A DNA stretch of 64,000 nt from Podarcis cretensis (Eukaryota): the NCBI GenBank assembly GCA_951804945.1, contig OX638151.1:62744001-62808000 (forward strand). Direction: 5' to 3'. A program made the position numbers and the translations under genes. Positions 12,800-62,036 of the stretch are shown here, in pieces; position 1 is the stretch's first letter; every line of letters starts with the position of its first letter. Under the pieces are notes generated by a model. That model was not told the DNA's origin and made no database searches. It saw only the letters and a program-made list of their open reading frames with translations.

Positions 12800-14086
12800 T
12801 TTATTTATATCCCGCCCTCCCCAGCCGAAGCCGGGCTCAGGGCGGCTAACAACAATCAAACAATCAAAAAATCAGATAATCGCACATTCTAAAAATATTT
12901 CATTATAAAAATCAATTAAAATCAAATTAATGGCAACTGATTAAGCAAGATTCTGTGCAGGTTGCCAGAGGAGGGAGTCAGGCTGCACCCTGACCAAAGG
13001 CCTGGTGGAACAACTCTGTCTTGCAGGCCTTGCGGAAGGATGTCAGGTCCCGCAGGGCCCTAGTCTCTTGTGACAGAGCGTTCCACCAGATTGGAGCCGC
13101 AGCCGAGAAGGCCCTGGCTCTAGTTGAGGCCAGCCTAACCTCTCTGAGGCCTGGGACCTTGAGGATGTTATTATTTGCAGACCGTAGGTTTCTCTGTGGG
13201 GCATACCAGGAGAGGCGGTCCCGTAGGTACGAGGGTCCTAGGCCGTATAGGGCTTTAAAGGTTAAAACCAGCACCTTAAACCTGATCCTGTACTCCACCG
13301 GGAGCCAGTGCAGCTGGTATAGTACCGGATGAATGTGATCTCGCAGCGAAGACCCCATAAGGAGTCTCGCCGCAGCATTCTGCACCCGCTGGAGTTTCTG
13401 GGTCAGTCTCAAGGGCAGCCCCACGTAGAGCGAGTTACAATAATCCAGTCTGGAGGTGACCGTCGCATGGATCACAGTGGCTAGGTCAGGGCGAGAGAGA
13501 TAAGGGGCCAACTGCTTAGCTTGGCGGAGATGAAAAAATGCCGCCTTTGTTATAGCTGTAATCTGCGCCTCCATAGAGAGGGAGGTATCGAAGATTACAC
13601 CCAAACTCTTAACGGACGGTGCTGGCACTAATTGCACCCCCGCAAGAGATGGGAGTTGCCCCCTCAATCCCATATCGTCCCGCCCCAGCCAGAGGACCTC
13701 TGTCTTCGAAGGATTTAACTTCAACCGGCTCCCACGTAACCATCCAGCCACAGCTTCCAGACATCTCGCCAGTGTGTCTGGGGCCGAGTCAGGATGGCCA
13801 TCCATCAACAGATAGAGTTGGGTGTCATCAGCATACTGATGGCAACCCAGCCCAAAACTCCGGACAAGCTGGGCGAGGGGGCGCATAAAGATGTTAAAAA
13901 GCATCGGGGAGAGAATCGCACCCTGAGGCACTCCACACACCAAGGAGTGGCGCGATGACAATTCCCCCCCGAGCGCCACCCTCTGTCCCCGACCAGAGAG
14001 AAACGAGCGCAGCCATTGAAGGACTGTGCCCTGGATCCCCACGTCGGCAAGGCAGTGGTCCAGGAGTTCGTGATCGACCATGTCGA
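12756..14086 (-). mobile_element. Young 5'-truncated L2-clade LINE
   Basis: Open RT frame, 3' UTR and (TTA)n tail at 12757-12796. CpG-rich. Truncated within the RT FDxVDH motif. Confidence 0.93.
12978..14081 (-). CDS. L2 ORF2 fragment: non-LTR reverse transcriptase and C-terminal domain (5'-truncated, 367 aa)
   Basis: Motifs GVPQGAILSPMLFNIFM, HQYADDTQLY, LKLNPSKTE, SRLDYCNSL, LQRVQNAAAR, LHWLPVEYRIRFK. No endonuclease domain, so not autonomous. Confidence 0.9.
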   Translation of the reverse strand: MVDHELLDHCLADVGIQGTVLQWLRSFLSGRGQRVALGGELSSRHSLVCGVPQGAILSPMLFNIFMRPLAQLVRSFGLGCHQYADDTQLYLLMDGHPDSAPDTLARCLEAVAGWLRGSRLKLNPSKTEVLWLGRDDMGLRGQLPSLAGVQLVPAPSVKSLGVIFDTSLSMEAQITAITKAAFFHLRQAKQLAPYLSRPDLATVIHATVTSRLDYCNSLYVGLPLRLTQKLQRVQNAAARLLMGSSLRDHIHPVLYQLHWLPVEYRIRFKVLVLTFKALYGLGPSYLRDRLSWYAPQRNLRSANNNILKVPGLREVRLASTRARAFSAAAPIWWNALSQETRALRDLTSFRKACKTELFHQAFGQGAA

Positions 14087-17000
14087 TAGCTCTCCAGGCC
14101 TACATAGATCTGTGTGAAGATACGTCACTCTCCTATTTCAGAGTCTTTATTACCACTAAAACCGACATATTATTTGTGGCTATATGCCATTCAGATTATA
14201 GTTATCCCATATATGCCCCACTAAATGCAAAGGTGCACCTCTCCACCTGCTGTCCTGACACCATCTCTGCCATTGTAGGTCATCCATGTAGAGACGGTAT
14301 GTTGGAATCGCATGTAAAATCTAATGTGTATAGACTAAATTCACAGCACTGTTTTCCATATTTATTCCATGATTTTCTTGACCATGCAGTTTTGGCCTAC
14401 ATAAGCTGAATTTTCTGTCCATGGGCTATACTGTAACATGCCACCTCTCTGTGGATGGCTGCAGACAACCGCAGTAGGGCTGACTCACCAATAGGGAGCA
14501 AAAGTACCCTCACACTCACAACCCCACAGACTGGGGGGTTAAGTATCATCCATTCCAACCCAGTGACAAAATGCTTTTCTTTAGAGCACTTCCAGAAAAG
14601 CCATTTCCAAGATGTATTTCCTGAAAGAAACTGGGAAATCTCTCTTTAAAAAATATAATGGGCCACAAACCTAGCAACATTTGGACAGAGTGATGCTTAG
14701 TACTGTGAAGATCAGTCTACCAAAGAGATCATTACTACACAGTATCCGCAATCTTCCTCTGGGGAAAGGATGCGAGAGGAAATGAGCCAGATGTGACAGA
14801 TGTTAGTCTCTTTGCTTAATGCACTGTTGGAAGATGCTCAGGTACAGCAATAATGGGGGAAGTCGAAATGCATGTCAAATAGAAAACCACTGTCCCACTT
14901 TAGTTGCATGCCAATATATGAACACTTAAATCAATAACATTATATATCAACATAAGAATGGAATCATGAACCAGATAAAATCAGCACTATGATGTGCTTA
15001 GCATCTTCAGTACTTTTCCTTTTCTCCTACGCTTCATGGCTTTATGCTACATACTATACACATGAAGTAAAAGTACCATGAGTTGAAGCTGAACTATTTT
15101 TCATGCTACCCAATCAGAAATAAGTCCCACTATTCTCAAGTAAGTATGGGCAGAATTCCAGGCTTGGGAGATAAATGCTAGGGGTGTGCATTGCCTCTGT
15201 GAGTGGGCTGAAGAACAAGTTGAATTTGGGTGGTTTGTGGGGAGGTCTCCCCTCCACACAATAGTGAAAGCACAATGTCAGCTTTTAAAAACCCAAGCTG
15301 ATTGGAGAGACACAAAATCTGTTGCTCTCTTTCTGTGCTTTAATGCGCCTTTACAGTTCTATATTTCCCTATATCGAACCGTCTTTAGGAACCAGGCAAA
15401 AGCATTTCTCTTTACCCAGGCTTCTATGGCCTGTGAAAGCTGAGAGGGACTGTTATTATAATTATTATTTTTATTATGCTTTAACAACAGAACAGCTGCA
15501 CAGAGCTCTTCAGAATTCCACAGACAGCCTCAGGTTGTAAGGTTTATCAGAGACCTGTAAACGCCTATTAAGAGGACTGTCCAGCCTATTGGATGACACA
15601 AATAGCCACCAGAAAGAAAGGTAGAGTTTTAAAAACCGTACAAACAAGAGTTTACACTACTTGGCCACCTCATAATTATCTGAAGGTACAAAAGAGACAA
15701 TATCTCTTCCATCCCCTCATACATGATTGTGGAGGAAAGTGAATTGCTTTTAACTACCTCCACAAAAAGCTCCTGAACCCATTTGTATACAATTTGGCAG
15801 ACTTAATCCAGTCCGGAGGAGCTCCACCGCCTGTAAATTTTATCCACTTTGGCACAAAGAAGAAAAGTTATAGGCATTTTTAGACTCCACATTATAGAGA
15901 ATGGGGGAACACAGAACTTCATTTTATACAGAGCACCCCAGGAGAAGGATTACAGACAGCAGCAGATAATACACACCTCTAATCCTATGGTCTCCATTCC
16001 CCTCAGGGAGCTACAATTCCGCTCTGAGATTTATATCTCTGTGATGGATTAGGGGCCTCTGAACAATTCTCAGCCCCCTTTACAGTTTCCATGATACGTT
16101 GTTAGAAGCCATAACTGTTTAAAGTGGTATGAAACTACATTAAATGTGTAGTGTGGATGTGGCCATGGTTAAGGAAAAATGGAAAAACCAGATGAGAAGA
16201 GGAATGACATGAACATCCCGGAGAAAGACATAGGTGGCTGACTGGAATGGGACAAGTAACATTTTGTTGCGGGTCCCACCTGTACATCTTAGTTTGAATC
16301 ACTGACGTGGCAGTTGTTAAAACGTTTACCGTATTTGGCTTTTTACCTGAAGGATTCAACTCTTGATTTGGAAGGGGCACAGAAAAAAAGAGGTTCTCTG
16401 CCCAGTCTCTTTGCCATCATGTTAGTTCCTCCAATCAGTATTTTCTGCTTACAAAGACAACTATGCTAGAGGTCTATATGAAGAAAGGCTTTGCTTGCAC
16501 AAGCAATCATCCATCAAGTTGTAAAGATACGTTTCTCAGTTCTCACATAGGTATCCTTAAGTAAAAGTCCAACTTGAATAACTTCAATCTCCGGTTTCAT
16601 CGACTGAATCTAAACTCTGGATGCTGTTTGTTTTCTGCAGGAAAAAATAGCTTTTAAAAATATATTTCATTCCCATTTCCTGTTTTTTCTAACAGGTCAG
16701 GCCCCCTACATTTGATGCCTATCAAGGCCAAAGGGCTTCATTCATCAAACCCTTTGCATTTTTCAAAACATGGACTTAGTTATTTGAAGAGTCCTTTTCT
16801 CTAGTGAACATTTAAAACCATTTAACCTTCCTAGTGTTAAAACTAGTTCCCAAACAGCAGGCTGTTGGGTTAAAAAAAAACAAAAAACTTTAGTGCTGTT
16901 TGCATACTTCTTCAGTATGGTATGATTTTATCTTTTCATCGCCATTCCAAGAAATCACCTTGTTCTGGCTAGATGCAAATTATTTGTCTGGAGCAATAGA

Positions 17001-17441
17001 TAACCTTCTTCCTTGGCACCACTCAGATGTGGTTATTCATTGCTTGATAACAGTACAAATGTATTGGGGACGTAGTGGCCTGCTATGGGTTGGATGAAGC
17101 CTCTTCACTCTGTTTTCTGAACAACAGCTGTCCCTTTTGGCCCCAATGAATCCAGTATTGTAAAAGCAGACAAACAGCTCTGAGGTTGCTCAGAACAACT
17201 ATTTTGGCTCCCTCATCTATGGCAATACTTTTGGATTGATAATGAGTGTTTCAGAGGATGAGAGACTGACAGAAATTTCTCCAGGAGCAGCATCTCTTAA
17301 ATCCAAATGGATTGCAGAAGAATGTATGGAACAGAAGAGAGTGTGGCTTTGAGATTTTGGGTTAAAAAAAATTGTTTGACATTTTGATTGGTAGGGTTCA
17401 GCCCTGATTGCCCTAATGGCCACAATAAAAATAAACACAAC

Positions 17442-18264
17442 TGTCAGAGCTGCCCAAGGTCCCAGCTCACAAAGGACCAACGCCAGTTCTTGCTATATAC
17501 AAAAGTCTTTATTAAGGTTCAGTTTCCATTTCAAAGCCGTGGCGTGCAGCTCTACGTCTCAACCCTAGACCGCTGAAGCTCCATCTGAATCTCCTCCCCC
17601 TCGACACCAGTTCAAGACCCTAGCCTTGCTCCACCTCCTCCTTTGCTCCTTTCTCCTCTGGGTCCTCCTGCCCGCTGGGGTGTCGCCCTTTCTGGACTCT
17701 TCTGATGCCGATTCCCCAGATTCTTCCCCCTGCTTCCGGCGTGCTTTAGGACCTGGCTCCCAATCCGACCTCCCTGCTGTCCCGCGCACCTGTACATTTG
17801 AACTTGGCGCGCGCGCCCAGCCGGCAACTTTCCTCCTGACCGTTACACTGCTCCTGTCACTGCTTCCCCCTTCGGGGGGGTTGGCTGGGTCTGACTTCCC
17901 CTCCGTTCCCTCACTCAGCGATAGGGGCGTGGTCAGCCCTGCCTCATCTTCTCTCCCCACTGGAGGGGAAGCCGGCCCTGACGCATGGGACTCTTCCCCC
18001 CCGCTACGCCCTGGTGGGGAAGCTGGTCCCGATCTCCAGCTGCTGCTTTGGGAGTCGCCGCTGGCCCCTTGCTTCTGGTGCGTCCTTCCCGGGACCCCCC
18101 TTGCCCTGGCCATCGGTGCCCCCTTCTGGGAATCTTCCGAATCGCTGGAGAAGCTCATGGAATCTCTCGGCCCACTGTCATACTCCCCTACGCTGCCCTC
18201 GGATTGTTCCCCTTCGCTCTCCGCTCTCTCTCTCCCCTGTGCCTCTGCTCCTGAACCCCTGACA
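17442..18264 (-). mobile_element. Solo LTR (probably Gypsy/Ty3-type), copy 1, 823 bp
   Basis: TGTCAG...CTGACA termini. 5-bp TSD ACAAC at 17437-17441 and 18265-18269. Minus-strand AATAAA at 17508-17513. Second copy at 41873-42698. Confidence 0.88.
17565..18263 (-). CDS. LTR-internal ORF: 232 codons, S/G/E/R-rich with a basic C-terminus, function unknown
   Basis: Frame is open from LTR nt 2 to TAG at 17565. About 75% aa identity by hand count, and equal length, to 41999-42697. Confidence 0.55.
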   Translation of the reverse strand, partial: VRGSGAEAQGRERAESEGEQSEGSVGEYDSGPRDSMSFSSDSEDSQKGAPMARARGVPGRTHQKQGASGDSQSSSWRSGPASPPGRSGGEESHASGPASPPVGREDEAGLTTPLSLSEGTEGKSDPANPPEGGSSDRSSVTVRRKVAGWARAPSSNVQVRGTAGRSDWEPGPKARRKQGEESGESASEESRKGDTPAGRRTQRRKEQRRRWSKARVLNWCRGGGDSDGASAV

Positions 18265-18289
18265 ACAACACAAAAAGGCAAAATAAGAC

Positions 18290-20269: not shown

Positions 20270-20758
20270 GTTCCAAAACCTAATCCGTTCCAGAAGTCCG
20301 TTCCAAAACCAAAGCGTTCCAAAACTAAGGTGCGCTTCCCCATAGAAAGTAATGCAAAATGGATTAATCCATTCCAGACTTTTAAAAACAACCCCTGAAA
20401 CAGCAATTTAACATGAAATTTACTATCTAACAAGACCATTGATCCATAAAACGAAAGCAATAATCAATGTACTGTACTATAAAATAAATAAGACAGCATT
20501 GTAGATGATTAAAGTTTTTTTAAAAAAAACCTTACCTACACTGATGATAGTCATTGTTTGGATGGGGGGGGGGCTTTTAACCATTTCCTCAGCCATACAA
20601 TCAATCAATCAGTAGCTTAACTGGCTTCCACACAGACACAAAAACAAATTAACCGAAAAAGCCTCAAAAACAAAACCACAAAATAAATAGCAAAAACAAA
20701 AGCGCCAAACTTAATCCATTCCGGAAGTCCATTTGACTTCCAAAATCTTCGAAAACCA

Positions 20759-21208
20759 GGCTGGCAGTAGACAATGGATGAACTTTGGGGATTGGAACCG
20801 GGGAATGGGGGGGGGGAGATTTGGAATCCAAAGGCTGTAAAATTATATATTATTTCTTTCTTTTCTTTTTTCATGTTTGTTGTTTGAAAATAGGGGAATT
20901 CGTGGAAGGGAAATGGGGTCGATCTTAGGGAATTATATAAAATATAAGGAGAAATGGTTCATTAAGATAAATAAGATAAATTAATTTGGAATAAATGGGT
21001 TATTTAAAATTACAAATAAGGTTTTAAAATTTGGGGTAAGAATCTGTGGAATCAATTTAAGGGAAATGGAATACAAGAGGGGGAGGGGGGGGAGTCCGGG
21101 AAAGATGCCACTGAAACCAAGTGTAAATCATATTTGTTTTTTCTTTTTTTCTTGCTATCTTTCCTTTTTATTCTGGAAAATTTTTAATAAATATTATTAA
21201 AAAAAAAA
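20759..21208 (+). mobile_element. 5'-truncated non-autonomous retroposon, probably L1-mobilised (element D; 3' part of the 60408-62036 family)
   Basis: Near-identical to ~61584-62036. AATAAA and poly(A). 17-bp TSD AAAATCTTCGAAAACCA at 20742-20758 and 21209-21225. Confidence 0.9.
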
Positions 21209-36909: not shown

Positions 36910-39160
36910 TTTAAAAAATAATATTTATTAATATTTTAAAGACTGCAAAAGAAAGACAAAGAATTAAACAAAACAATACAATACAATACAATACAAAAAC
37001 TAAAACACCACACAACACCAACCCCCAAACATTAAATTAACAAAACCAAACAAACACAATTTAAAACACATCTAATAAGTTCAGTATCTTAACTTTTATT
37101 TACTTGTTTCAACGACCTCCTCACACCTCCCTTTTTGTATTTCACTTTAATTAACTGTTTCAGCAATTCCTTTCCATCTTCCTCTGTTTTCTGTCCTGTA
37201 ATTTATCTTAACATATTCTAACCTTATTTTTCCCTTTAATATATAATTGTCTTAACATATTTTAGCTTTATTTTCCCTTTAATACTCTAATAATCTATTT
37301 GTACTTAATTCCTTGTAACATTTCTACTAAAGCCATATAGCTCCTTTCCAACATTTTTCTAACACTCATTAATTTTACAATATTTTTATAAATAGTCTTT
37401 AAACTTTTTCCAATCTTCTTCCACCGACTCTTCTCCCTGGTCCCGGATTCTGCCAGTCATATCCGCCAATTCCCTATAGTCCATAAACCTGGTGATCTTC
37501 TGTCCGATGCTCTTAACTCTTTTCCAAGTCCCTTCTGCGAGTCTTCTTCATATTTATACATCGAACTTTACTTTGTCTTCCACTGATCTTATTTTCATTT
37601 TCCTTCCTTTAAGGCTAAAGAGTAGATCTCGGGGTAACTCCCACCTAAAGATGATTTTATTCCTTCTTGACAGGGCAACCAAATCTCCGTAGTTAAATCT
37701 AAGATCCGAAAGGTACTTCAGGACATCTTTCAAAATTTCCACTCTTGACTGTTGTTCTTCTAAGTTCCTCTGGTAGTTCCAACAGTCTCTTATTTTGTTC
37801 TTCTCTTTTTTCCCTCCTCTTCCAAGTCCGAGAGCCCTCACAGTTTTAATCTCTTCTTGACCCAAGTCCCGGTCCCAAAAGTCATCAAATTCCTGTGTAA
37901 GGAAATCTATCAAACTTCCCTTCTCCAGTTCAGGTAGGGCTCTGATCCTCAAAATCTGATTTTCTTTAAATTCAATCATAGCAGGCATCAACTTATGGTC
38001 ATCAAATTGCATCTGTAAGGCTGGGACTCTCTCTCTCTCCAATTGTGTTACTTTAGGTTCAACGGCAATAACTTTCTCCCTAGCCTTCTCCGCAGTTTGC
38101 CATGTCAAAGTAGATTCCTGTGTCAGTTTCTGAATAGTTTCTATATTGGTGTTCACTTTTTATCCCAAATTGTCAATTTTGGTAGTTACCACATCCACCT
38201 TTTTGTGAAGCTGTTCCAGTGAGTCACTTATCTTACATAATACAACGACTAAGGCCTCTTCTGTCAACATTCTTAACCGATTCAAGGTCCCCAGAATCTC
38301 ACAGGTTTTTATCTTGCAGCTGGAAATTCCCCCAGCTCAACTCTTGTGACAGTTTCAAAAGCTTCCTCTAGAGGGAAACAGTTCCTCTAGAGGGAAACAG
38401 TTTCTATTTGTATTAGTCCTTTTAAACTCAATTCAAACAATAAAGTTAGTTTCAATTTTCTGTTACTTTTACTCCATGGAAACAATGTATTCCTCTTATT
38501 TAACTAACTGTCAGTGAACGTTCTAATCACGGTCAGTCCTGTTGGCAGCCTGTTTCCAGCATCGGAGGGGTGGTATATTAACTCTGTTCGCTCTCTCCTG
38601 CAGGTATACTCAGTCCAAAACTTTCCCCCCTCTTCTCCTGCCACCAAGGGGGGTTTAGTATTTTTTACTGATGGAAATTTAGTTCTTTACAATAGGCTTT
38701 CCGAGACTTCAGCTTGCATCCTCATTGCTTCAATCTATTTACAAAAGGGGAAGGTGGACTTCCTGTTTTAGACCTCCCCGTTTCGGCACCAAATTAAGAC
38801 GTTTAAAAATCCAATTCTCCACTCTACTCACGGGTAGTTGCTTTAAGATCAAATTGTCCACAAGAAAAAGTCAGCGCTCTCCGGCAACAGCTATGCGGCT
38901 TCGCTCCATGGAAGAAGCAGTCAACTCGAAGCACCGCACCGCTCACCCTACGTCGCTCCGGATCCCCGAAACCGGGTTTCCCCGGGAGTAGGGGAGGCGC
39001 AAAAGGTGCCAGCTGAATCCCACGTTCACAGGCTTCACCCGCCTGTGATTTCTAGTGGGTCTCCGCCTTCGCCGTGGCGGCCAGACCCAGATTCCTACGA
39101 AGCAAATTCCTCCCGATCAGAGGAATTCCGCCATTACCGGAGGTGCTAACCCGGAAGTCC
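36910..39160 (-). mobile_element. Full-length internally deleted L1-derived non-autonomous retroposon (element A, ~2.25 kb)
   Basis: CpG-rich 5' UTR starting GGACTTCCGG, then an ORF1-like region, the tip of ORF2, a 3' UTR and an AATAAA/A-rich tail. TSD GTCCTTAAAAATTAGAATATT at 36889-36909 and 39157-39177. Confidence 0.88.
37554..38270 (-). pseudogene. L1 ORF1p-like remnant (coiled coil, RRM start, CTD)
   Basis: ATG at 38270 with an in-frame TAA at 38162-38160. Heptad-like region, LRIRALPE and FRWELPRDLLFSLKG motifs resemble vertebrate L1 ORF1p. Confidence 0.7.
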
Positions 39161-41872: not shown

Positions 41873-42698
41873 TGTCAGAGCTGCCCCTAGGTCCCAGCTC
41901 ACAGAGGACCAACGCCAGGCTGTAGTTATGTACAAAAGTCTTTATTGAGGTTCAGTTTCCATTTCAAAGCCGCAGTGCACAGCTCTACGTCTTAAAGCCT
42001 AGACCGGCGAAGTACCGTCTGAGTCTCCTCCCCTATGACACCAGTTTAAGATCCTAGCCCTGCTCCACCTTCTACGCTGCTCTCTCCTCCTCTGGGTCCT
42101 CCTGCCCGCTGGGGCATTGCCCTTTCTGGACTCTTCCGACGCTGAGTCGCTTAGCTCCTCCCCCTCCCTCCGGCGGGCTTTAGGACCCGGTTCCCAATCT
42201 TCATTCTCTGCTGTCCCGCGCTCCTGTACATTTGAACTTGCCTCTCGCGCCAACGTAGTGACCTTCCTCCTGACTGTTACACTACTTCTGTCACTGCTTC
42301 CCTCTTCCGGGATACTGGCCGGATCTGACCTCCCCTCCGTTGTCTGACTCTCCGATGGGGGTGTGGTCAGCCCTGCCTCATCTTCTCTCCCTGGTGGGGA
42401 ATGCACTGGCCCCGATCCTCGGGACTCTTCCCCCCCACTCTGCTCTGGTGGGGAAGCTGGTCCTGATTTCCAACTACTGCTCTGGGAGTCCCTGCTGCCC
42501 CCTTGCTCCTGGGGCGTTCCCCTTGGGAACCCCCTACCCTTGGCCACTGGCGCCCCCTTCTGTGAATCTTCCGATTCGCTGGAGAGGCTCATGGAATCCC
42601 TCAATCCACTGTCCTCTTCTCCTACGCTCCCCTCGGATTCTTCCCCTTCGCTCTCCATCTCCTCTCTTCCCTGTGCCTCTGCTCCTGAACCCCTGACA
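41873..42698 (-). mobile_element. Solo LTR copy 2, 826 bp
   Basis: TGTCAG...CTGACA termini. TSD GCGAG (41868-41872) / GTGAG (42699-42703), differing by one CpG transition. Minus-strand AATAAA at 41941-41946. Confidence 0.88.
41999..42697 (-). CDS. LTR-internal ORF, 232 codons (219 aa from ATG at 42658), homologue of 17565-18263
   Basis: Same length, same stop position and no frameshift relative to copy 1. Confidence 0.55.
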   Translation of the reverse strand, partial: VRGSGAEAQGREEMESEGEESEGSVGEEDSGLRDSMSLSSESEDSQKGAPVAKGRGFPRGTPQEQGGSRDSQSSSWKSGPASPPEQSGGEESRGSGPVHSPPGREDEAGLTTPPSESQTTEGRSDPASIPEEGSSDRSSVTVRRKVTTLAREASSNVQERGTAENEDWEPGPKARRREGEELSDSASEESRKGNAPAGRRTQRRREQRRRWSRARILNWCHRGGDSDGTSPV

Positions 42699-56850: not shown

Positions 56851-57331
56851 ATGGAATTTGGACTTTAAAATCTATATCTTTGAATTCGGTACAACCGGGG
56901 GATGTGCTAAAGGGAAGTCCGCACCCCCCTATCTACAAACGATCTAAAGCAAGGATCGGTGGACTAAGGTGGAGAGTACTGTTTTTGGTGTTAGATAAAA
57001 AATATTTCCATGAGTTTGACAGAAGTCTTTGTGCTGGAGAGAAAGTGAGGAGTTTTGGAAGCTTTTGTGTAACCCCCCCTCCCGAACCCGGGAGCGTCCT
57101 GTGTGTGAGCCGGAGGAAAAAGAACAAGGAGTTTGACAGCTGTCAAAGGAGCTGTCAAACGGGCGGCTAAAATTTAAGAACTTTGTTATTTAATAACTTT
57201 CTGAACTAAAAGTGTTGCTTTTGAACTGAGGTGGCTGAAAACAACGTAGTCATAAACAACAAAGTAACGGGCTGTTGGAAAAGGACTATCAAGCAACTGT
57301 AATCCCCCTAGGGGGAACTAGAGACATTACA

Positions 57332-57904
57332 ATGGCTGCAGAGGGAAAATTACTGGTAGAGATAGAAAGAATGTTTTTTCTCGTGGGAATCCTGCAAGAG
57401 CAGAGTACGGCTATGAACAAAGAACTTATGACCTTGAATTCCAAAACAAACGACTCTGCTGAATGCATAAAGGATTTGCCTGATAAGGAATCTGCAGCTG
57501 AACCAGAAAAAACTTTTTTGGAACCGGTGGAGAGAAAAGAAGGAATGGAAAAAGTGCAGGAAAATATCAATCAGAAGCCCATATTGTCAGGAAATAAAGA
57601 AGAAGATCTTTGGATTACAAATCTGCGAAAGATGAGAAAGTTGAAGGAGGAAGTCCCGGGAGCACTTGGAATATTGGAATTCAAAAGAGTAAAGAAATAT
57701 GATTGGGACTTCCTCCTTGAGTATGGGAGATCAACTGACTTTTTGCAGCAACTGCTATTAAGTATCTTGGATGGAAGAAAATATGATGTGACTGAGATAG
57801 AATTCCTTCGAGACCTGAGGACCAACAAAAAGGGCTACCAACAAAATCGGCAGAGAGAGACTGACAGAGACTTGAAGGCCTCTGATGTGAGGAATCCGGG
57901 CTAG
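57332..57904 (+). CDS. Element-B ORF, 190 aa, unknown function (possibly a highly diverged or truncated ORF1)
   Basis: ACAATGG Kozak-like start and an intact frame. A decayed homologue is in element C (LSRICYLLGKLQKRS vs IERMFFLVGILQEQS; FKRTKK vs FKRVKK; DVDTPG vs DVRNPG). Confidence 0.6.
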   Translation: MAAEGKLLVEIERMFFLVGILQEQSTAMNKELMTLNSKTNDSAECIKDLPDKESAAEPEKTFLEPVERKEGMEKVQENINQKPILSGNKEEDLWITNLRKMRKLKEEVPGALGILEFKRVKKYDWDFLLEYGRSTDFLQQLLLSILDGRKYDVTEIEFLRDLRTNKKGYQQNRQRETDRDLKASDVRNPG

Positions 57905-60407: not shown

Positions 60408-62036
60408 AAAACCATGGGCGGAGATGCCCATGGACTTGGTGACTCGGTGGGCACCGTTTGCGCCCCCCCGACCCGCGAAGGAGCCTTTTTAAAGGCTGCG
60501 GAGCGGGTGACGGGGGGTGTGTGGTGCTGTGAGTCCAATGCTTCCCCTGCCCAGCGAAGCCGCATGCCATTCGGCGGAGAGCAACGACTTCTTCTTTGAA
60601 AATTTTGGATTTGGACTAAAAGGAACAACCCGTGAGTAAATTGATTGGACTTAAAAGGGAAATTTGATCTTTGAATTTGGAGCGAGCAGGGGGGGTGCAA
60701 AAAGGAAGTCCACCCCCCCCCCCCATTGTAGATGGCTCAACGCAAGGATTTGACAACTAAGATCGAGAGATGAACTTGTTTACCTGAAAAAAATTTTTAA
60801 CTTCACGAAGGGAAATTACAATAATTGTGCTGGAGGAGAAGACTGATTTGTGGGAACTAAAATGCAACCCCCCCGGGAACCGGGAACGATCCGCTATGAG
60901 AGACTGGTGAAGAGACACAGAAACTTTGACAGCTGTCAAAGTAGCTGTCAAAGCAGGAAAATAAAAGAGAACTTTGTTACGATGGCTTTGCTGGTTAGAT
61001 TTGTTACAATTTGGACATAAATTATTGGAAATAAAGGCAACAAGTTATTTGACTTTTGGGTCTGATTTTGAAAGAAATTAAGTTACCATATTCCCTCTAG
61101 AGGGAGGCTGGGACATTGCAACAGTAGCAGCAAGTGGAAAAATATTATGAATTTGAGCAGGATCTGTTATCTCTTGGGAAAGCTGCAAAAACGAAGCATT
61201 ATTTTGTCTACAGAGGTTTCTATACTAAAGGAGACAATGGATTTATCTATTGAAGAAAGGAAGGGACTTGACGCAAGTTATGTTCCTGAACAACAAAAGC
61301 CTCTGTGGAGAACAAGAAGTTTCTGAATTAGAAGGTTTCTGCAGCAGAACAGGAAAAAGCAACCTGAGGAATAAGAGCTGGACCAAATTTGAAGCCGGAG
61401 TATTTGGAACATCCAGACTTTAAAAGGACCAAGAAATAGAATTTAAGTTAGACTCTTAAACATAGAGGTCTGGATGGAAGAACAATGACTTTTTCTGAGA
61501 GTTTTTTCGAGATTGGACTTTCTGAAATTAAAAGCTATCAAAAGACGGCAAAGTGGAGTTGAGATATAGACGTGGATACACCAGGCTGGCAGTAGACAAT
61601 GGATGAACTTTGGGGATTGGAACCGGGGAATGGGGGGGGGGAGATTTGGAATCCAAAGGCTGTAAAATTATATATTATTTCTTTCTTTTCTTTTTTCATG
61701 TTTGTTGTTTGAAAATAGGGGAATTCGTGGAAGGGAAATGGGGTCGATCTTAGGGAATTATATAAAATATAAGGAGAAATGGTTCATTAAGATAAATAAG
61801 ATAAATTAATTTGGAATAAATGGGTTATTTAAAATTACAAATAAGGTTTTAAAATTTGGGGTAAGAATCTGTGGAATCAATTTAAGGGAAATGGAATACA
61901 AGAGGGGGAGGGGGGGGAGTCCGGGAAAGATGCCACTGAAACCAAGTGTAAATCATATTTGTTTTTTCTTTCTTTCTTGCTATCTTTCCTTTTTATTCTG
62001 GAAAATTTTTAATAAATATTATTTAAAAAAAAAAAA
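60408..62036 (+). mobile_element. Slightly 5'-truncated non-autonomous retroposon, probably L1-mobilised (element C, decayed ORF)
   Basis: Colinear with element B from hairpin 3 onward. Poly(A). 18-bp TSD AAGAAGGAGCCAGACAGT at 60390-60407 and 62037-62054. Confidence 0.9.

Follow-up and report, generated by a model that had tools for sequence, protein, structure and literature searches.

Introduction

Coding sequence overlaps the U3 region of the 3' LTR in HIV nef and MMTV sag, which are separate genes expressed from spliced RNAs of enveloped retroviruses. Among LTR retrotransposons, the coding regions of the plant CRM group A and of beet Bingo elements extend into the 3' LTR, according to the available portions of the reports on them (PMC3059260, PMC3605345, PMC5818461). 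Elements of the Tf1/sushi type, as far as the accessible text of the sources goes, are self-priming, with the 5' end of the RNA itself acting as primer (PMC4600332, PMC6317226), and have LTR termini of the form TGTYANR...CNTNACA (PMC3601003). The integrases of Ty1 and Ty5 are described in the available parts of two papers as having disordered C-terminal tails that function in targeting, with Sir4 tethering Ty5 to silent chromatin at telomeres (PMC9673352, PMC4700185). The telomere-specific elements SART/TRAS, MoTeR, Zepp, GilM/T and the anole Tx1-1_ACar are all non-LTR or Penelope-like in the portion of the source at hand (PMC10088271).

Here we describe a Tf1/sushi-type Ty3/gypsy element of the lizard Podarcis cretensis, the LTR of which holds a long open frame. 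The literature searched yielded neither a vertebrate gypsy element whose Pol fills U3 nor an LTR element within the telomeric arrays of a vertebrate, although one of either kind may be described in sources outside its scope, namely Repbase reports and subscription papers on vertebrate chromoviruses.

Two solo LTRs share a long open frame

The window analysed here, a stretch of 64,000 nucleotides, contains two solo LTRs with the following features (window coordinates):

17442..18264, minus strand: solo LTR copy 1, subfamily c2, 823 nt, Tf1/sushi-type Ty3/gypsy, recognized by its termini and target-site duplication (TSD)
17437..17441, plus strand: TSD ACAAC of copy 1, with the second instance at 18265-18269
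17565..18263, minus strand: very probable Pol/integrase C-terminal tail in U3 of copy 1 (P0001), 232 codons plus TAG
17576..17586, minus strand: AGATGGAGCTT of copy 1, complementary to the family primer-binding site (PBS); putative self-primer and start of R
17607..17616, minus strand: TATA-like element of copy 1, of putative function, about 30 nt upstream of the inferred start and overlapping the L-N-W codons
17508..17513, minus strand: AATAAA polyadenylation signal of copy 1
18156..18158, minus strand: internal Met of RDSMS in copy 1, which precedes the putative transcription start and is replaced in some relatives
41873..42698, minus strand: solo LTR copy 2, subfamily c10, 826 nt, TSD GCGAG/GTGAG
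41999..42697, minus strand: very probable Pol tail in U3 of copy 2 (P0002), 232 codons plus TAG
42010..42020, minus strand: self-priming site AGACGGTACTT of copy 2, complementary to the c10 PBS AAGTACCGTCT
41941..41946, minus strand: AATAAA polyadenylation signal of copy 2

Both LTRs have the termini TGTCAGG...TCTGACA and represent elements on the minus strand. As the original prediction proposed, they are two separate insertions with distinct TSDs, that of copy 1 being exact (ACAAC/ACAAC) and that of copy 2 having one mismatch (GCGAG versus GTGAG), and over the entire LTR they are 82% identical (680 of 830 alignment columns). The predicted 699-nt frame, equal in length in the two copies and running from LTR nt 2 to a TAG about 50 nt before the AATAAA, was likewise found in both: in each LTR, 232 codons are open from nt 2 onwards and end with a TAG at nt 698-700, and the AATAAA at nt 752/753 lies 51-52 nt beyond this TAG. 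The estimate that about a quarter of the residues differ agrees with our count of 57 of 232, the underlying nucleotide differences falling mostly at third codon positions (33/34/69 at positions 1/2/3), and the length difference between the LTRs (823 versus 826 nt) is made up of three 1-nt indels, every one past the stop and thus outside the ORF, as had been stated. One detail required correction: the product had been read as ending in LNWC, after which 12 further residues follow. Genome-wide, the copy 1 LTR gave 2,820 initial candidates, of which the best 40 match at 97-100%; the 1.5-Gb genome also contains 1,057 exact polypurine-tract/3' LTR junctions.

Such a frame might be an accident of T-poor, purine-rich promoter DNA, i.e., a functionless run-on of Pol. 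When LTR nt 1-700 were shuffled 5,000 times with dinucleotides preserved, the longest open frame averaged 138 codons for copy 1 and 115 for copy 2, so that the concern that sequence of this kind stays open by chance is borne out for long frames in general, which are fairly frequent. Sense frames of at least 232 codons arose with P = 0.019 in the shuffles of copy 1 and P = 0.0034 in those of copy 2. A single frame of this length is thus only modestly unlikely in T-poor DNA, and the case rests on conservation across subfamilies, which is considered below.

The window shows several further features. The sequence GCGCGCGCCAAGTTCA at 17801-17816, which resembles what we take to be an E2F-type site, encodes ARAPSS, is conserved at the DNA level in several subfamilies and is changed in copy 2. 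The open frames at 12978-14099 (minus), 37554-38159 (minus) and 57239-57904 (plus) resemble, by eye, fragments of a LINE RT and of LINE ORF1. A block of at least 300 nt occurs in two 100% identical copies, at 20755-21054 and 61580-61879 (40.8 kb apart), and is probably a very young repeat.

The full-length element and its self-priming

The LTRs of the window belong to a Tf1/sushi-type Ty3/gypsy element. Its full-length copies have a gag of 358 codons with Retrotrans_gag, Ty3_capsid and DUF4939, and a pol with the Pfam domains RVT_1, RT_RNaseH, Integrase_H2C2, rve and SH3_Tf2-1 in this order, the best PDB match being Ty3 Gag-Pol (E 1e-135); the protease motif DSGS can be read in the Pol sequence, giving the order PR-RT-RH-IN. 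The gag/pol overlap contains a GGGAAAC heptamer (L151:2358, L159:2368 and L162:2270 on the element strand), presumably the same as in mammalian PEG10. Upstream of the polypurine tract lies a stretch that we read as a degenerate chromodomain from its resemblances: the Pfam Chromo match (E 0.04) is below the cut-off, the best PDB matches are CDYL2 (E 0.034) and then LHP1 and HP1, and N, R and A occupy the positions of Y, W and Y in CDYL2, aromatics that we take to form the methyl-lysine cage. The sequence from pol to the LTR showed no env-like ORF.

Of the LTR termini, TGTCAGG fits TGTYANR exactly, whereas TCTGACA has one mismatch to CNTNACA in the window copies and the fit is exact in the copy at L162. 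The family PBS is not tRNA-like but of the self-priming type, and in 47 of 48 PBS-bearing elements it is complementary, over a length of 10-11 nt, to a site located 142-148 nt from the LTR end. Five versions of this PBS/LTR core co-vary between subfamilies, in addition to that of c10, whose AGACGGTACTT differs from copy 1 at three positions, each compensated in the c10 PBS. By analogy with the Tf1 mechanism as given in the available part of the source, transcription would start at about LTR nt 679, within the last ORF codons (PMC4600332); in copy 1, AGATGGAGCTT falls within the last seven or so. A start at this position would place the ORF in U3, beyond the reach of the promoter of a solo LTR. 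The suggestion that the Met of RDSMS allows expression from solo LTRs consequently loses its footing, the inferred start lying about 570 nt downstream of this Met, which is Ile or Pro in some relatives, although read-through from a host promoter could still use it.

Two other features of the full-length copies are apparent. The first bases after the 5' LTRs are GTAAG(T/C), which is splice-donor-like and overlaps the self-priming PBS. The polypurine tract comprises four adjacent G-runs, identical in the young subfamilies and variable in length in most older copies, with a composition that may be quadruplex-like.

The Pol frame runs into the LTR

We examined 60 3' ends from the first 100 listed junctions, 20 picked by subfamily and 40 others, most of a cluster at the end of one chromosome being omitted. 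A single open frame connects the RT, IN and chromodomain motifs to the tail in 35 of the 60, all of them from the young sister subfamilies c1 (784-nt LTR) and c7 (759-nt LTR), and the chromodomain is in frame with the tail in 46. This Pol frame of about 1,560 codons (1,556 and 1,563 in two examples) passes through RT, RNase H, integrase, the degenerate chromodomain and the polypurine tract before reaching the LTR stop. Two public proteins of Podarcis muralis (P0007 and P0012) end in the same LTR-encoded tail; both bear the automatic UniRef name 'Gypsy retrotransposon integrase-like protein 1', which leaves the LTR location unmentioned. The named matches of three word-based searches were all from Podarcis, and three further assemblies also matched. 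We hold with high confidence that the LTR frame constitutes the last 210-232 residues of the Pol polyprotein. The earlier surmise that the frame begins in the internal region is thereby upheld, as it is continuous with pol in full-length relatives, while the idea of a separate nef- or sag-like accessory gene gives way to an in-frame Pol C-terminus, the same fusion being present in the P. muralis proteins.

In older c2 and c10 copies, the register is often lost through changes in the length of the polypurine-tract G-runs. In the first 30 of 97 junctions, chromodomain and tail are in register in 5 of 10 for c10 and in none of 11 unselected ones for c2; the corresponding counts are 2 of 6 and 2 of 2 in a selected set of 20 extra junctions chosen for a longer last G-run. 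Given the 0 of 11, c2 may have spread partly without a translated tail, and these counts may speak against a translated tail in its last burst, though in-frame c2 copies exist. We also considered whether Pol normally ends 25 codons into the LTR in another frame, as it does in older copies, and rejected this since the young copies and the public proteins read through.

The tail could lie in the Pol frame and still act as a separate small protein with an accessory, anti-silencing or RNA-binding role, either released by the element protease or started on a spliced or subgenomic RNA at an ATG five bases upstream of the 3' LTR; we consider this rather unlikely. The polypurine tract does have an in-frame ATG at its end, in a strong context (GGGATGG), but since this ATG belongs to the tract, which is DNA-identical in c1 and c7, its presence is explained without its use as a start, and the junction search pattern itself demanded it. 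Similarly, the donor-like GTAAG(T/C) after the 5' LTR, while favouring a spliced product, coincides in part with the PBS. Among the joints listed for two sets of contigs presumed to derive from RNA, none began at this donor-like site, which favours neither reading. Many older copies retain the LTR frame despite an out-of-register junction, and the Arg-rich end of the tail has what we take to be a resemblance to RNA-binding or NLS motifs, both of which would fit a separate protein; against it, young copies keep a strict Pol-tail register that is needless for a separately initiated gene.

Purifying selection on the tail

The tail is under purifying selection. In comparisons of five subfamilies that used real copies only, the Pol frame has a net dN/dS of 0.23-0.38 (0.32-0.49 at kappa 3), as against 1.3-1.7 and 0.8-1.1 for the other two sense frames, and maximum-likelihood estimation under a codon model gives an omega of 0.35 for seven subfamily representatives, again real copies (2dlnL = 94.6 versus omega = 1). 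These values support the selection on the sense frame that had been proposed and lie well under the dN/dS near 1 that the original prediction had set against itself. Of 70 invariant tail residues, 49 have synonymous variation. As a neutral control, the 5' and 3' LTRs of the same element were compared (46 pairs), yielding 27/19/24 changes at the three codon positions and 45 nonsynonymous versus 19 synonymous changes.

The indels follow the frame in a comparable manner. Whereas 18 of 20 single-copy ORF indels are frameshifting, the ORFs of six representatives of closely related subfamilies differ by indels of 3 and 63 nt, i.e., multiples of three, a check suggested at the outset, and the indels in R-U5 are 1-2 nt; alignments with the distant c1 have some gaps in the ORF that are not multiples of three but cancel each other. 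The same stop and in-frame indels are found across subfamilies up to 35% diverged, and the full frame is kept in 128 of 159 independent LTRs, a fraction biased upwards as most of these were top matches to intact queries. A frame-specific dN/dS below 0.5 alongside the neutral control, together with the shared stop and in-frame indels, leaves a functionless run-on most improbable despite the long frames of the shuffles.

Between c1 and c7, omega is 0.05 for RT, 0.06 for integrase, 0.22 for the linker and 0.28 for the tail, which is thus 5-6 times that of RT, with the middle third of the tail near neutral (0.51-0.72). The dS values are similar (1.38 for the tail and 1.31 for RT), and constraint at the DNA level therefore fails to explain the pattern of selection. 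Within subfamilies, the shared-versus-singleton comparison gave no significant difference (p = 0.24).

The antisense ORF was rejected as the coding frame: the TGA noted earlier at 42345-42347 is present and breaks it in copy 2, and its dN/dS (0.31-0.54) is above that of the sense frame, values below 1 being expected for a frame that shares third positions with the sense frame.

The tail as a candidate integrase targeting module

The tail is rich in S, G, R, A and E and has no match in Pfam or the ESM Atlas. In nine sequences, including those of other species, the blocks RKV, PGxKARR, SASxESR and RWS....L.WC are invariant. AlphaFold modelling of the chromodomain, linker and tail gave a mean pLDDT of 47.5 with the chromodomain unfolded; short helices were predicted in the linker and at the S..LLNWC motif of the tail, which otherwise has no confident fold. 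Because the L-N-W codons share sequence with the TATA-like element, and the last codons with the self-primer, part of the conservation at the end may be at the DNA level.

In our judgement the best explanation, which we favour with moderate confidence, is that the C-terminus of Pol extends through the polypurine tract into U3 as a likely disordered integrase tail bearing nuclear-import and chromatin-tethering motifs; a role of the tail in targeting or nuclear import also seems somewhat probable. Gag-Pol would be produced by a -1 frameshift at GGGAAAC and then cleaved, releasing an integrase in which a chromodomain without the cage would be followed by about 135 residues of acidic linker and then by the U3 tail, the C-terminal extension amounting to about 350 residues in all. 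The short motifs RRKV, PGxKARR, SxSEESRK and RxWS...LxWC, basic or helical in character, would act as NLS and partner-binding sites, like the C-terminus of the Ty1/Ty5 integrases or the CR motif of CRM. The presence of the frame in the solo LTRs of the window would be passive, each replication copying U3 to both ends of the element.

The role could instead be generic, the tail being an acidic or disordered spacer, an aid to solubility or stability, or a means of placing the stop near the poly(A) site. An omega 5-6 times that of RT, a tolerated 63-nt in-frame deletion and a near-neutral middle third would all suit this, but discrete motifs that are invariant in nine sequences including other species, mostly with synonymous variation, would not, and we regard it as distinctly unlikely. 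It would also require another cause for the telomeric bias of c1 described next, such as the linker, Gag, timing or the survival of the newest insertions.

Insertions of subfamily c1 in telomeric repeats

The sister subfamily c1 has 728 LTR ends, 363 of which face their own PBS, leaving 365 on the host side. About 225 of these 365 (107 C-strand and 118 G-strand) directly adjoin telomeric repeat, a share of 62% that is approximate since the repeat patterns are slightly shorter than those of the denominator; about 38% of c1 copies are on chromosome arms. Near-perfect TTAGGG arrays total about 324 kb, or about 0.02% of the assembly, and the telomeric enrichment of c1 is several thousand-fold; a five-fold under-assembly of the arrays would still leave it at about 1,000-fold or more. 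By comparison, all subfamilies ending GGCAGCYCTGACA together have 2 telomeric ends, both from c7, which has 1,966 LTR ends.

The telomeric copies of c1 (e.g., L129-L132, L193, L194 and L207-L226) occur at both chromosome ends and also in interstitial arrays, in both orientations and in one phase, many on small unplaced contigs. Seventeen of 20 fetched copies could be parsed whole. Each of the 17 has an exact duplication of CTAAC or GTTAG; pol is open in 15, and the LTRs are identical in 12, as they are in 12 of 22 copies of c7. In a tree built from 18 telomeric copies and 12 from chromosome arms, orientations and arm/telomere locations are intermixed, which indicates independent insertions. 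The possibility that the telomeric copies are duplicates of one founder was rejected, as no two of them are closer than 6 substitutions while one arm/telomere pair differs by 1.

All subfamilies share a target preference, V-Y-W-R-B, which fits GTTAG/CTAAC and so explains the single telomeric phase. This fit, and the fact that the window's own copies and subfamilies are not telomeric, would again be compatible with a generic tail; however, a 5-bp preference common to all subfamilies leaves the thousands-fold enrichment unexplained. c1 and c7 are 88% identical in IN but only 52% in the linker and 50% in the tail, a contrast that suggests the integrase C-terminus as the target determinant, judged from a sequence correlation across two subfamilies. 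In the explanation favoured above, C-terminal divergence would account for the presence of c1, but not c7, in telomeric repeats despite the shared integrase core. Our tentative extension of this, which we put at somewhat less than an even chance, is that the U3 tail is a fast-evolving targeting module whose c1 version tethers integrase to telomeric chromatin. The cause could instead lie in the linker that precedes the LTR, in Gag or in when the element is expressed, and insertions of the slightly older c7 could have been lost to fast telomere turnover. The motif [FYH]xLxP, which we take to be of the TRFH type, was rejected as the cause since it occurs only as HALFP and in all three subfamilies tested; PxVxL is absent from the same three.

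Several other arrangements were observed in these regions. An internally deleted c1 variant of about 3.5 kb from LTR to LTR, with identical LTRs, is present at separate sites (L133, L177 and L211) in arms and telomeric repeat and was probably mobilised in trans. At the start of contig C1 (L189-L192, C1:1-51,000), a 46-bp satellite contains c7 and c10 copies, and on the same contig telomeric arrays of opposite orientation flank a c1 element at about 35-41.5 kb, which could be a fusion scar or an assembly join. Dense mutual nests of c7, c10 and c4 lie near a chromosome end (L195-L202, C1:141.08-141.59 Mb; also L169, L170 and L203), and c7 copies are found within AT-rich and ~500-bp satellites as well.

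Implications

If the above reading is right, one vertebrate LTR would be at once a promoter, a self-primer and about 230 codons of selected protein, and thousands of ORF-bearing solo LTRs would be explained without host genes. Moreover, c1 and c7, both recently active, with near-identical catalytic cores, divergent C-termini and very different distributions of targets, offer a natural experiment on integrase targeting. Should the c1 tail indeed tether integrase to telomeric chromatin, c1 would be a currently active telomere-targeting LTR retrotransposon of a vertebrate that has turned the telomeres of this lizard into mixed arrays, with roughly one 6.5-kb element per 1.5 kb of assembled TTAGGG. 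This would be relevant to the measurement of telomere length and to the stability of chromosome ends in lizards, and a defined telomere-tethering peptide would be generally useful.

Comparison with known systems

Unlike nef and sag, the lizard frame is continuous with pol (35 of 60 ends), and the element is without an env-like ORF. The proposed integrase resembles those of Ty1 and Ty5, as the available parts of the reports present them, in a large, phosphorylatable and disordered C-terminus with an NLS and a short targeting motif; yet these are of the Copia superfamily, their C-terminus is not LTR-encoded, and Ty5 is described there in telomere-near heterochromatin and not as packed into the repeat array. 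With SART/TRAS and Tx1-type elements, c1 shares canonical telomeric repeats as target, in its case at one fixed phase (PMC10088271, in the portion at hand), and differs from them as an LTR element with an integrase that inserts in both orientations and also on arms. Packed into telomeres, it is thus unlike the known telomere invaders, non-LTR or Penelope-like, in those parts of the literature searched that were available.

In organization, Tf1, Tj1 and sushi-ichi, in the accessible text of the sources, have in common with the lizard element the order PR-RT-RH-IN, a Tf2-type SH3, a chromodomain-like stretch, which we read as degenerate in the lizard, a self-priming PBS and an LTR beginning with TGTYANR (PMC6317226, PMC4600332, PMC3601003). 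The lizard element differs in about 350 extra residues past the chromodomain, two thirds of them within U3, and no such extension was found for vertebrate Tf1/sushi members in the literature searched.

In coding layout, beet Bingo1-4 and 7, as far as they are described in the part of the report available, likewise extend into the LTR with a chromodomain upstream of the polypurine tract. A parallel is also seen in CRM group A, in which, according to the available portions, gag-pol crosses the polypurine tract into the 3' LTR, as it does in the lizard element (PMC3059260, PMC3605345); what the LTR encodes there is the C-terminus of integrase, which is linked with the targeting of a repeat-rich chromosome region. 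CRM, which is centromeric and has the CR motif instead of a chromodomain, is primed by tRNA-Met in those same accounts, in contrast to the self-priming lizard element, which lives in an animal host and keeps a chromodomain-like stretch upstream of the polypurine tract. The lizard extension fills about 85% of the LTR, its likeness to that of CRM being one of layout, and the enriched target is the telomeric repeat, in c1 only.
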